Shown here piece by piece: positions 27,424-32,624 of a stretch of 64,000 bases of DNA (its first letter is position 1; each line of letters opens with the position of its first letter). The stretch lies in the NCBI GenBank assembly GCA_038237685.1, contig JBBRYL010000001.1, positions 38,189 to 102,188 of the forward strand, given 5' to 3'. A program made the position numbers and the translations under genes. Under the pieces are notes generated by a model. It was not told where the DNA came from. It searched no databases and saw only the letters and a program-made list of their open reading frames with translations. This stretch comes from Solirubrobacterales bacterium. GTDB taxonomy: Bacteria; Actinomycetota; Thermoleophilia; Solirubrobacterales; Thermoleophilaceae.

Positions 27424-27627
27424 CTACTGCACCCACCGCTTGAAGACGAGCATATGGCCGTCCTTCTCGCGGTGGAGGTTCACATCGAGGAACACCGTCG
27501 CGAGCTCCCAGCCGTCTTCGCCGAGCTCGTTCATCGAGGCCTGTAGCTCCTCGCGATTCAGCTCGTCGGACTGGCGGCCCATGAAGCCGTGCGTGATCAC
27601 GCTGGTGGTGTATTCCCACTTGGCCAT
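27424..27627 (-). CDS. DUF4177-like small protein
   Basis: 67 aa; MAKWEYTT...LGEDGWELATV... matches my recollection of DUF4177. Confidence 0.7.
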   Translation of the reverse strand: MAKWEYTTSVITHGFMGRQSDELNREELQASMNELGEDGWELATVFLDVNLHREKDGHMLVFKRWVQ

Positions 27628-27644
27628 AGACGCGGCAGTATGTC

Positions 27645-27673
27645 ACGCATCAGTGCGTTACGCATAGCTGCGT
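27645..27673. promoter_or_regulatory. Dual palindromic operator (ACGCA-N4-TGCGT, two copies) upstream of the DUF4177 gene
   Basis: ACGCATCAGTGCGT T ACGCATAGCTGCGT, 18-46 nt upstream of the ATG at 27627, in locally AT-richer DNA. Confidence 0.6.
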
Positions 27674-27682
27674 AACGTTTTC

Positions 27683-28831
27683 TCAGGCTTCGAGCCGGCG
27701 CACCCACTCCGCAAAAAAGGGCTCCGCGATCCAGGAGTCGCCCCCGCTGCGCGCCACCAGCTCCTGGCGCTCCAGGGTCTCGAGCGCGCGCTGCACCGAC
27801 GAAGCACCGGGCAGGCTGTGAAAGCGGCGGTAGTTGTTGGTCAGAGGGCGGCCGGGCTCGGCGGCGAGCGCCTGCAGCAGCTGGCGCTGGGCGCCGGCGG
27901 CACGCTCCCAGATGAGTCCGAAGTGCGAGTCCTCCGACGCCAGGACGCGACCCACCGCCTGATCGAGCCGGGCGGTCTCGGCCTCGTCTCCCTCGGGGGT
28001 CTCCTGCCACAGGAAGTACGCCAGCTCCTGCGTGGCGTATGGGTGCCCGCCCGTGACCTCCAGCAGCTGGTCAAGGCATTCCGGGGCAATCGTGCGGCCG
28101 GTGCTCTTGAAGCGGCGCCGGATGAACGGCCGGAACTTCGCCGGATCGATCACCCCCAGCTCGATGCGCTTTGCGCTGCGCCAGAAGGGCTCGTTCTCAT
28201 CGCTGAAGATGCGCTCCATCATGTGCCGCTTGCTGCCCAGGTAGACGTGGGCGACCTCGGGCTGGGCCTGGAACACGGCGCGCATGAGCTTGGGCAGGTC
28301 GCGATCGATGTCGACGATCTCCTGGAACTCGTCGAGCACCAGCGCGACTGGACGCCCGCGCTCGGTGGCCAGCCGCCCGGGCAGCTCGAACAACCGCTCG
28401 AGCGTCGCGTCCATGTCGGCCGGCGCGCGGCTGGCCGAGAACGAGAACGACATCGTGCCGTCGTCGGGATCGACGGTGACCGTCGGGCGCACGCGCAGGC
28501 CCTGGAAGATCCGCATCCGCTCCTTGGCGCGGAACAGCACCGAGGCCACGTCCTCGTAGATGGTCTGAGCCAGTTTCTCGGCCAGCTTCTCCTTGGTGGG
28601 CGTCGTCATCAGGTCGATCTGGGCAACCAGTACGTCATGGCTGCCCACGAGCTCCTGCGCGGCTTTCCACACGAGCGATGACTTGCCGTAGCGGCGCGGG
28701 GCGAAGACCACCACATCCTGGCCGTTGCCGACGTCGGCCACCAGCTCGGCCAGCTCGGCCTCGCGGTTGGTGAAAGAGTCGTCCAGGGCGAGGGCGCCGT
28801 AGCGGAAGGGGTTGGTGCGGGGCCCGGCCAC
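27683..28831 (-). CDS. AAA-type ATPase of the Arch_ATPase (PF01637-like) family with a C-terminal winged helix
   Basis: NPFRYG...FTNREAELAEL...VFAPRRYGKSSL (Walker A), LVLDEFQ (Walker B), and a C-terminal wHTH-like SSVQRALETLERQELVARSGG. GTG start. Confidence 0.8.
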   Translation of the reverse strand: MAGPRTNPFRYGALALDDSFTNREAELAELVADVGNGQDVVVFAPRRYGKSSLVWKAAQELVGSHDVLVAQIDLMTTPTKEKLAEKLAQTIYEDVASVLFRAKERMRIFQGLRVRPTVTVDPDDGTMSFSFSASRAPADMDATLERLFELPGRLATERGRPVALVLDEFQEIVDIDRDLPKLMRAVFQAQPEVAHVYLGSKRHMMERIFSDENEPFWRSAKRIELGVIDPAKFRPFIRRRFKSTGRTIAPECLDQLLEVTGGHPYATQELAYFLWQETPEGDEAETARLDQAVGRVLASEDSHFGLIWERAAGAQRQLLQALAAEPGRPLTNNYRRFHSLPGASSVQRALETLERQELVARSGGDSWIAEPFFAEWVRRLEA

Positions 28832-28843
28832 GGCATTTATTGT

Positions 28844-28872
28844 ACGCAGAGTTGCGTTACGCGTTAGTGCGT
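28844..28872. promoter_or_regulatory. Dual palindromic operator (ACGCA-N4-TGCGT, two copies) abutting a TACAAT -10 box of the ATPase gene
   Basis: ACGCAGAGTTGCGT T ACGCGTTAGTGCGT. On the minus strand, TACAAT (28839-28844) lies 7 nt from the GTG at 28831, a leaderless-type arrangement. Confidence 0.6.
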
Positions 28873-31752: not shown

Positions 31753-32624
31753 TGGCCATTCTCGTCGACACCGAGACGAAGCTGTGCGTCGCGGGCATCA
31801 CCGGCCGCGAGGGCACCTTCCACGCGCTGAACAACCGCAGCTACGGCACCCAGGTGGTCTCGGGCGTCACACCCGGCAAGGGCGGCCAGGACGTCGAGGG
31901 CATTCCAGTATTCGACACCTTCCATGCGGCGGTCGAAGAGACCGGCGCCAACACCGCGATGGTGTTCGTGCCCCCGCGGTTCGCCGCCGATTCGATCCTC
32001 GAGGCCGAGGATGCCGGCATCGATCTGATCATCGCCATCACCGAGGGCGTCCCCGCCCACGACGAGATGACGGTCTACAACCACCTGGCGCGCGGCAGCT
32101 CGCGGCTGGTGGGGCCCAACTGCCCCGGCATCCTGTCGCCCGGCAAGGCAAGCGTGGGCATCATTCCCGCCTCCTTCTTCAAGGAGGGCAACGTCGGCGT
32201 GGTGTCGCGCTCGGGCACGCTGACCTACCAGATCGGCAACGAGCTGGCCCAGCGCGGTTTCGGCAACTCCTCGATCGTGGGAATCGGGGGCGACCCCGTG
32301 CCGGGCTCCAGCTTCATCGACATCATCGAGCTGTTCGAGGCCGACCCCCAGACCGAGCTGATCGTGCTTTCGGGCGAGATCGGCGGCGACGCCGAGGAGC
32401 AGGCGGCCGACTACATCTTCGAGCACGTGAAAAAGCCGGTCGTTGCCTATATCGCCGGGTTCACCGCTCCCCCCGGCAAGACGATGGGCCATGCCGGCGC
32501 CATCGTCTCGGGCTCCGCGGGCACCGCGGCCGCAAAGGCCGACGCGCTCGAGTCCCGTGGAGTGAAGGTCGGACGCACCCCCACCGCGGTGGCCGACATC
32601 GCGGTCGAGATCCTCGGCGGCTAG
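31752..32624 (+). CDS. sucD: Succinyl-CoA synthetase alpha subunit
   Basis: The ATG overlaps the sucC stop. GITGREG, MGHAGAIV (catalytic His). Confidence 0.95.
   Translation: MAILVDTETKLCVAGITGREGTFHALNNRSYGTQVVSGVTPGKGGQDVEGIPVFDTFHAAVEETGANTAMVFVPPRFAADSILEAEDAGIDLIIAITEGVPAHDEMTVYNHLARGSSRLVGPNCPGILSPGKASVGIIPASFFKEGNVGVVSRSGTLTYQIGNELAQRGFGNSSIVGIGGDPVPGSSFIDIIELFEADPQTELIVLSGEIGGDAEEQAADYIFEHVKKPVVAYIAGFTAPPGKTMGHAGAIVSGSAGTAAAKADALESRGVKVGRTPTAVADIAVEILGG

Follow-up and report, generated by a model that had tools for sequence, protein, structure and literature searches.

In restriction-modification systems, C proteins bind as tandem dimers to two adjacent palindromic operators that precede a leaderless gene, and their autoregulation is concentration-dependent. 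C proteins are about 80 aa in length, carry an Xre-type helix-turn-helix (HTH) without a nucleoside triphosphatase (NTPase) domain, and control a linked endonuclease gene. The present analysis concerns a 64,000-nucleotide stretch of the genome of a Solirubrobacterales bacterium (assembly GCA_038237685.1, contig JBBRYL010000001.1; the whole stretch is referred to as the window), in which two pairs of palindromic boxes lie upstream and downstream of a gene encoding a 382-aa ATPase. These boxes are probably the cognate DNA sites of the adjacent ATPase, which is predicted to use them for ATP-dependent autoregulation, and C proteins with their C-boxes would be the closest analogy for the working of the upstream array.

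DnaA is an AAA+ protein with a DNA-binding domain, and clusters of its boxes before and after its own gene repress its own promoter. However, the window ATPase is of another clade and has another DNA-binding domain, and DnaA boxes are asymmetric 9-mers. Orc1 binds origin recognition boxes (ORB) as a monomer via its winged helix and an initiator-specific motif. Archaeal Orc1/Cdc6 (PDB 2QBY and 2V1U) aligns with the window ATPase over the full-length fold and has repeated dyad sites beside its own gene; in contrast, the sites in the window are 14-bp palindromes in 15-bp phase situated on a promoter, with neither an AT-rich unwinding element nor a GC-skew switch. The STAND/AAA+ factors MalT, AfsR and IniR resemble the window ATPase in the fusion of an NTPase module to a DNA-binding domain, and the ATPase domain of IniR was modelled on archaeal SSO1545 (PMC5760070). 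These factors differ in their length (800-1000 aa), sensor repeats, LuxR- or OmpR-type HTH domains and activation of other operons, whereas the window ATPase is minimal and apparently targets its own locus. SSO1545 (PDB 2FNA) and PABY2304 (PDB 2QEN) belong to the same Pfam family as the window protein and have the AAA+ domain, lid and winged helix in common with it. Both are archaeal and ~16% identical to it, and neither has been assigned a function or a DNA site; their solved structures are labelled only hypothetical protein and Walker-type ATPase, whereas the bacterial protein has a defined cis-element. The window protein is an ATPase_2 member and is predicted to be an autoregulated winged-helix repressor with tandem operators joined to a domain like the NTPase of the origin recognition complex (ORC).

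The two box arrays

The ATPase gene occupies positions 27683-28831 on the minus strand. Each array comprises two 14-bp palindromes of the form ACGCA-N4-TGCGT, which are separated by a 1-nt junction and thus spaced at 15 bp. The upstream pair (28844-28872; no strand assigned) reads ACGCAGAGTTGCGT-T-ACGCGTTAGTGCGT. The downstream pair (27645-27673; no strand assigned) reads ACGCATCAGTGCGT-T-ACGCATAGCTGCGT, has four perfect half-sites out of four, and is positioned 9 nt past the ATPase stop codon and 17 nt ahead of the start of a DUF4177 gene. Over both arrays seven of the eight half-sites are perfect, with ACGCG as the sole deviation. Single 14-mers with no more than one mismatch are not rare in this 70%-GC window (5 found, 2.9 expected). 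In a scan of the 64 kb that allowed up to two mismatches, the tandem 29-mer was matched at these two sites only, and the same two sites are the top-scoring tandem half-site arrays of the entire window. The box sequences, positions, 15-bp spacing and proportion of perfect half-sites in a preliminary description of this DNA are exactly as in the sequence. The AT-richer setting reported there is also borne out, as the box-bearing intergenic spacers have 51-53% GC compared with 69% in the flanking genes. The paired palindromes are confirmed as real and far from chance, and they are very probably operators.

A one-mismatch single box (ACGAAGCTGTGCGT) was also observed at 31776-31789, within the succinyl-CoA ligase alpha gene at 24 nt from its start. 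The match is consistent with chance, given the number of single 14-mers expected.

Linkage of the boxes to the ATPase gene

The exact pattern ACGCA-N4-TGCGT-N-ACGCA-N4-TGCGT, with 20 specified bases, was sought in one genome per species (596 Gb). At least 119 genome loci contain it, as against a chance expectation of about one, and it is therefore more frequent than at random. Among the matches listed, an ATPase homologue with 24-88% identity to the window protein directly adjoins the boxes in ~80 of the at least 119 loci, no other gene is consistently beside them, and the ATPase-linked loci extend over more than 10 phyla and genomic GC contents of 31-75%. The hosts include Actinomycetota (Solirubrobacterales, Gaiellales), Acidobacteriota, Bacteroidota (Bacteroidales), Ignavibacteria, Cloacimonadota, Verrucomicrobiota, Marinimicrobia, Aminicenantes and Gemmatimonadota (Gemmatimonadales).

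The upstream arrays at these ~80 listed loci lie 2-115 bp before the start codon of the ATPase homologue. Many loci of the ACGCA class have a second array at -16 to +60 bp from the stop codon, as seen in Solirubrobacterales, Bacteroidales, Ignavibacteria and Acidobacteria. Arrays contain two, three or four boxes, whose spacing is 15 bp for 181 of 196 neighbouring pairs (356 boxes) and whose four central bases are nearly free. In the close relatives L203 (89% identity), L204 (79%) and L205 (handles beginning with L denote individual loci), the upstream pair is kept in all three and the downstream pair is absent from all three.

A large regulon was considered and rejected, as there is one locus per complete chromosome among the matches listed, which is not proof. 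Box loci without an ATPase were likewise rejected as regulon members, since most of them result from the division of sequences into 8-kb chunks, belong to the same Solirubrobacteraceae hotspot or represent empty sites. The pattern was also matched by 15-bp tandem direct repeats, for example TTTGTGTCACGCAGT x4.7 and ACGCATGAATGCGTC x3.8, in Litorilinea (L044, L084, L086), a Clostridiales metagenome-assembled genome (L019, L030, L071) and Anaerolineales (L091, L110). These loci have G/C junctions and identical spacers, occur several times per genome and have no ATPase nearby; they are a different, minisatellite-like phenomenon with the same 15-bp period by coincidence.

Half-site classes among homologues

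A motif-independent sample was obtained from 80 metagenome loci that were selected by protein similarity only. ACGCA-type pairs are present upstream of 10 of 76 and downstream of 2 of 63 of these homologues, and nowhere else in the 350 kb. The same architecture recurs with other half-sites, including ATACC-N4-GGTAT, TCGCA-N4-TGCGA (three in a row), ATGCx-N4-TGCAT, ACGCT/ACGCC, ATCCT and others. Two 5-N4-5 palindromes 15 bp apart were identified in 24 of 75 upstream regions, compared with 0.026 per 150-bp background window. A score for how alike the four half-sites are was above the 95th percentile of the background in 44 of 75 upstream regions, which makes phased tandem palindromes a majority trait of the family, and above the 99.9th percentile in 20 of 75. 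The corresponding counts downstream were 9 and 3 of 63. Judged from sequence, the ACGCA box appears to be one specificity class among several. The array behind the gene is a minority trait that recurs in at least one other class; at L143, ATCCT-type arrays are present on both sides of the gene, so that the downstream array is of its own class.

An unusual array was observed at L168 (1230-1330), upstream of an ATPase homologue, where three 15-bp units form a 45-bp perfect palindrome. The units (ATACT..GGCGT, ACGCT..AGCGT and ACGCC..AGTAT) make the array palindromic as a whole and are not all palindromic singly, and the palindrome ends in TATAAG just ahead of the start codon.

Co-variation of the recognition helix and the half-sites

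The C-terminal winged-helix domain of the ATPase (residues ~311-382; 27686-27901, minus strand) is indicated by the AlphaFold model (confidence values, pLDDT, of ~95 here and 81 on average), in which helices 313-324, 332-337 and 343-355 are followed by a hairpin wing at 359-368. The same region has weak matches to MarR, IclR and GntR HTH families and a weak profile match to the winged HTH (wHTH) regulator 3R0A. In the winged-helix fold, the third helix is the recognition helix. The predicted recognition helix (residues 343-355) is encoded at 27767-27805 on the minus strand, and its stretch A-S-S-V-Q-R-A at 343-349 is predicted to determine specificity. Residues 344-348, with which this helix begins in the model, follow the pattern S344-S/T-x-Q347-R348, which is nearly invariant in a 32-sequence alignment across phyla.

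Half-sites of the ACGCA type go together with S[ST]xQR in ~60 proteins from 17 identity clusters. TCGCA half-sites are associated with the replacement of Q347 by A or H (L153, L149), and ACGCC/ACGCT half-sites with the replacement of R348 by K (L126, L133 and L137, and the distant L168, L190 and L195). ATACC half-sites are found with T-N/H-V-Q-K (L128, L136, L145), ATACA half-sites with T-N-V-Q-R (L144), and ATGTT/ACAT-type half-sites with T or G in place of R348. The co-variation runs in both directions: actinobacterial proteins that are 55-65% mutually identical have different boxes where their helices differ, and distant proteins with the same helix have a common box. The ATPase motifs do not vary across 101 family representatives, whereas more than 60 versions of the five-residue helix motif were counted among them; only 9% of the representatives have S[ST]xQR, in agreement with the low count of ACGCA boxes among protein-selected homologues. 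An apparent residue-to-base code may be read from these pairings, in which residues 344/345, 347 and 348 would correspond to half-site positions 2-3, 1 and 5, respectively.

Promoter geometry

The -10-like hexamer TACAAT (28839-28844, minus strand), identified by sequence reading, shares a T with the last base of the proximal upstream box and is followed after 7 nt by the GTG start of the ATPase gene (28831). The preliminary description had recognised a proximal box that abuts TACAAT in a leaderless-type promoter, and this geometry is as described and recurs in the family. A TAnnnT hexamer 5-10 nt before an in-frame start was found in 72 of 99 high-GC family members and in 72 of 425 neighbouring control genes, the comparison being looser for the ATPase genes, for which several possible start codons were accepted. 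The hexamers (TATACT, TATAAT, TATGAT, TACAAT and others) overlap or directly follow the last box. Since the boxes run into a TAnnnT element at this distance from the start codon, the ATPase promoter looks leaderless, and the two boxes in the window would occupy approximately -12 to -40. Repression would be the simplest consequence of such occupancy.

The ATPase protein and its family

The protein matches Pfam ATPase_2 (PF01637; formerly Arch_ATPase) over residues 20-268 with 47.7 bits (cut-off 33.2), and also AAA_16. A match to nSTAND1 (PF20703) over residues 18-361 (31.1 bits; cut-off 27.1) overlaps the ATPase_2 match and thus reflects the same clan, not an extra domain. The Walker A motif PRRYGKSS (residues 45-52; 28676-28699, minus strand) and the Walker B motif LDEFQ (residues 166-170; 28322-28336, minus strand) are intact, with R46, R47, G49, K50, D167, E168 and Q170 invariant in the 32-sequence alignment. 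PRRxGK[ST]S is kept in the 101 family representatives and DEFQ in nearly all of them.

A single-sequence search of the PDB gave no match. Matches were obtained only with a family profile, to 2FNA (E = 1e-19) and 2QEN (E = 3e-16), with human Cdc6 reaching only E = 0.59. The top two Foldseek results are 2QEN and 2FNA (E = 9e-11 and 2e-10; TM-scores 0.54-0.60), followed by dozens of Orc1/Cdc6/ORC chains aligned over at least 400 columns (E = 1e-9 to 1e-7; TM-scores 0.43-0.50). The Orc1/Cdc6 alignment spans the whole AAA+, lid and winged-helix architecture, and Avs3, RFC and MalT appear further down. The protein has no match to the Cdc6/ORC AAA+ or Cdc6_C Pfam families, nor to DUF234 (PF03008), and it ends ~15 residues past the wing. 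The short-form subfamily comprises at least 1,505 clusters at 50% identity (E <= 1e-30), nearly all of 370-390 aa. The literature search found no paper that describes the box sequence or assigns a function to PF01637, and as far as that search could tell, the earlier statement that no characterised regulon has this box holds.

At L034 (4398-5999) and L055 (4255-5895), a canonical ATPase_2 + wHTH + DUF234 paralogue of 485-492 aa (487 aa in L034) was observed in the slot of the short ATPase, between acyl-CoA dehydrogenase and MeaB-like genes. Three ACGCA boxes precede the paralogue by 90-110 bp, although its helix-turn-helix sequence is different. No ATPase paralogues were found in the window or in the same contigs, and second matches in L038, L099 and L103 were rejected as a hidden Markov model artefact of GAF repeats. 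At L099 (4457-7999), an ATPase homologue continues in frame after its N-terminal 250 residues as a long GAF-repeat open reading frame, and this fusion is probably the product of a deletion or frameshift. A role as a defence system was also rejected, as PADLOC matches were non-significant, PHROGs gave none, no effector domain was found, and the neighbours are metabolic and variable. Only two viral homologues, both distant and both without boxes, were found in 2.9 million viral contigs.

Proposed autoregulation by the ATPase

The preliminary description had thought autoregulation by the ATPase conceivable on account of its winged-helix tail. This is now the best-supported reading, given the family-wide box linkage, the structure model and the helix-box co-variation. 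The palindromic sites overlap the core promoter of the ATPase's own gene, as in autoregulated winged-helix repressors. Each 14-bp palindrome would be read by a dimer via the N-terminal end of the recognition helix (344-348, S-S-V-Q-R), with two to four dimers placed side by side at 15-bp intervals. The upstream array would cover -10 to -35 of the leaderless promoter, so that occupancy would turn the gene off (negative autoregulation). The AAA+ domain, with its intact Walker motifs, probably couples the nucleotide state to oligomerisation and hence to occupancy. The array behind the gene would be a recurrent accessory site of the same protein, which may cooperate with the upstream array (e.g., through a ~1.2-kb loop) or serve as a roadblock. 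The position of the downstream array in this genome coincides with the putative DUF4177 promoter, so that DUF4177 would be co-repressed.

Several observations weigh against autoregulation by the ATPase. Solo arrays persist without an ATPase gene (L114, L005, L118), and ~40% of the protein-selected homologues have no detectable upstream array. Almost no box sites were seen beyond the arrays at the ATPase's own gene, which leaves any output past self-control unexplained, and downstream arrays between convergent genes are not explained by simple operator logic. The co-variation is partly confounded by shared ancestry, as relatedness inflates the counts, and it is not without exceptions: Q347 in L150 is accompanied by both ACGCA and TCGCA half-sites, and R348 in L155 and L161 by ATACG and ATACT. 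Finally, neither site was recognised as a promoter in a strict sigma-70 consensus scan, a -35 match not being expected in this organism.

DUF4177 as a local neighbour

The DUF4177 gene (27424-27627, minus strand; 67 aa) is a lineage-specific downstream neighbour of the ATPase gene. Its product matches Pfam DUF4177 (PF13783) with 29.1 bits (cut-off 25) and the NCBIfam family Sp36_fam with 33.8 bits, below the cut-off of 50; it is therefore not filed as Sp36, and the match serves as a lead only. A small Methanosarcina protein of the Sp36 family has been reported to inhibit ammonium transport (PMC10714827). Other neighbouring genes are metabolic and encode a carboxyltransferase, a GNAT acetyltransferase, a metallo-beta-lactamase-fold protein and succinyl-CoA ligase, among others.

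The preliminary description was headed by a co-regulated module of the DUF4177 and ATPase genes, and the boxes could accordingly define a dedicated, conserved regulon whose two members act together. In the window, a box pair does directly precede a -10-like element at both genes: a possible -10 element of the DUF4177 promoter, CATACT (27637-27642, minus strand), proposed from sequence reading and by analogy with the ATPase promoter, lies 2 nt past the downstream box pair and 9 nt ahead of the DUF4177 ATG. This layout mirrors that of the ATPase gene and makes local co-control plausible. However, DUF4177 adjoins or lies near the ATPase only in the nearest clade (L101, L205 and L001, the last being the window sequence itself). 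In L205, it follows the ATPase by 9 bp and has no boxes of its own; it is absent in L203 and L204, and it is not beside ~160 other family members examined. Downstream arrays elsewhere precede unrelated genes, and in about half of the cases they lie between convergent gene ends, which offer no promoter for them to control, as in the ATPase> boxes <MeaB-like arrangement of L018, L023, L047, L058 and L083, so that they are not in general an operator of the downstream gene. A conserved two-gene regulon is thus unlikely. The comparison of genomes shows the upstream box kept by the closest relatives (79-89% identity) and no DUF4177-ATPase linkage beyond the nearest clade. What stands of the earlier claim is that DUF4177 is probably co-controlled in this genome; the two-gene module is a local peculiarity, and the downstream pair goes with the 3' end of the ATPase gene and not with DUF4177.

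A variable stretch was also observed between the conserved acyl-CoA dehydrogenase and MeaB-like genes of Solirubrobacteraceae (L007, L013, L029, L083, L098). It contains the ATPase, the fatty-acid-hydroxylase-like F5 and the DDN/F420-reductase-like F6 in changing order, with arrays at the junctions. As arrays lie ahead of F5 or F6 in some species, these genes may be local targets, like DUF4177 in the window.

Alternative explanations for the arrays

The arrays could instead be loading or recombination sites that bracket the gene, at which the ORC/Cdc6-like protein assembles within a semi-autonomous or selfish cassette. The protein would mark, insulate, move or replicate this cassette, the gene would be gained or lost via the arrays, and the hypervariable specificity helix would keep co-resident or competing cassettes orthogonal, like the immunity or incompatibility determinants of mobile elements. 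Such a cassette would agree with the Orc1/Cdc6-like fold of the whole chain, with arrays that bracket the gene in several phyla and two specificity classes, with different genomic contexts of the gene even at 79-89% identity, and with decayed ATPase remnants between arrays (L115, L050). Solo arrays would be empty sites, which are seen in Acidobacteria, Solirubrobacterales and Cloacimonadota. The occupied acidobacterial site L016 has the order F37> box-box <ATPase box-box ... box-box <F36. At the empty site L005, the same convergent genes enclose a single pair; the outermost downstream box of L016 recurs unchanged, with the same spacer, as the first box of this pair, and the second box is similar to the outermost upstream box. 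In most species of Solirubrobacteraceae, the interval from the acyl-CoA dehydrogenase gene to the MeaB-like gene holds boxes-ATPase-boxes, whereas that of L114 holds a single pair. In Cloacimonadota, L118 has a pair 95% identical to that of L075 and no ATPase gene. Imperfect ~50-bp direct repeats of 79-85% identity (L075, 2286-2409 and 4007-4302) bracket the boxes-ATPase segment and duplicate the region upstream of the next gene, and L118 has one copy. However, solo arrays and remnants also fit simple loss by recombination between repeated arrays. Neither a recombinase, a transposase, a tRNA gene nor a target-site duplication was found at the window locus, and an integration hotspot was rejected there on the lack of a tRNA gene or recombinase nearby. 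A replication origin was considered and found no support: the 64-kb window has no GC-skew switch, with no skew inflection at the locus, and no AT-rich tract beyond the boxes. In the Solirubrobacteraceae hotspot, the gene has the same place and orientation in many species, which suggests vertical descent with sporadic loss. Only a minority of the protein-selected sample has downstream arrays, and regulation is the simpler explanation for how tightly the upstream array fits the promoter. The cassette is an improbable explanation, though the solo arrays and remnants allow for it.

The existence of solo arrays without an adjacent ATPase would also be expected if a different, unlinked transcription factor bound the boxes and the ATPase were merely one of its targets. 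This is very unlikely, as the ATPase is the only gene consistently beside the boxes across phyla and the box sequence changes along with the ATPase's own recognition helix. In addition, the window annotation has no transcription factor or other regulator gene within ~7 kb of the boxes, in line with the earlier remark that no dedicated regulator is adjacent. The palindromes might also act as RNA hairpins (a 5' element or a terminator), or be chance or repetitive extragenic palindrome-like repeats. The downstream array directly follows the stop codon, and its region folds somewhat better than shuffled sequences (z = -2.9). Yet the stems are only 5-6 bp, lack a U-tract and are sequence-invariant across phyla without compensatory change, while the 4-nt centres vary freely. 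The upstream array precedes the predicted transcription start, no Rfam match was found at E <= 1, and with only two copies in 64 kb the element is not a dispersed repeat. An origin as RNA structure, chance or repeat is therefore extremely unlikely.

Implications for the family

With the boxes as probable binding sites of the ATPase, a large family distributed across many bacterial phyla gains a first testable activity through a defined DNA site. Tests could build on the fixed architecture, with 14-bp palindromes phased at 15 bp on a leaderless promoter, and on the apparent residue-to-base code; the half-site classes would provide a natural set of orthogonal protein-operator pairs. The finding also prompts one to ask why an ORC-like NTPase should have the two ends of its own gene as its main binding sites.

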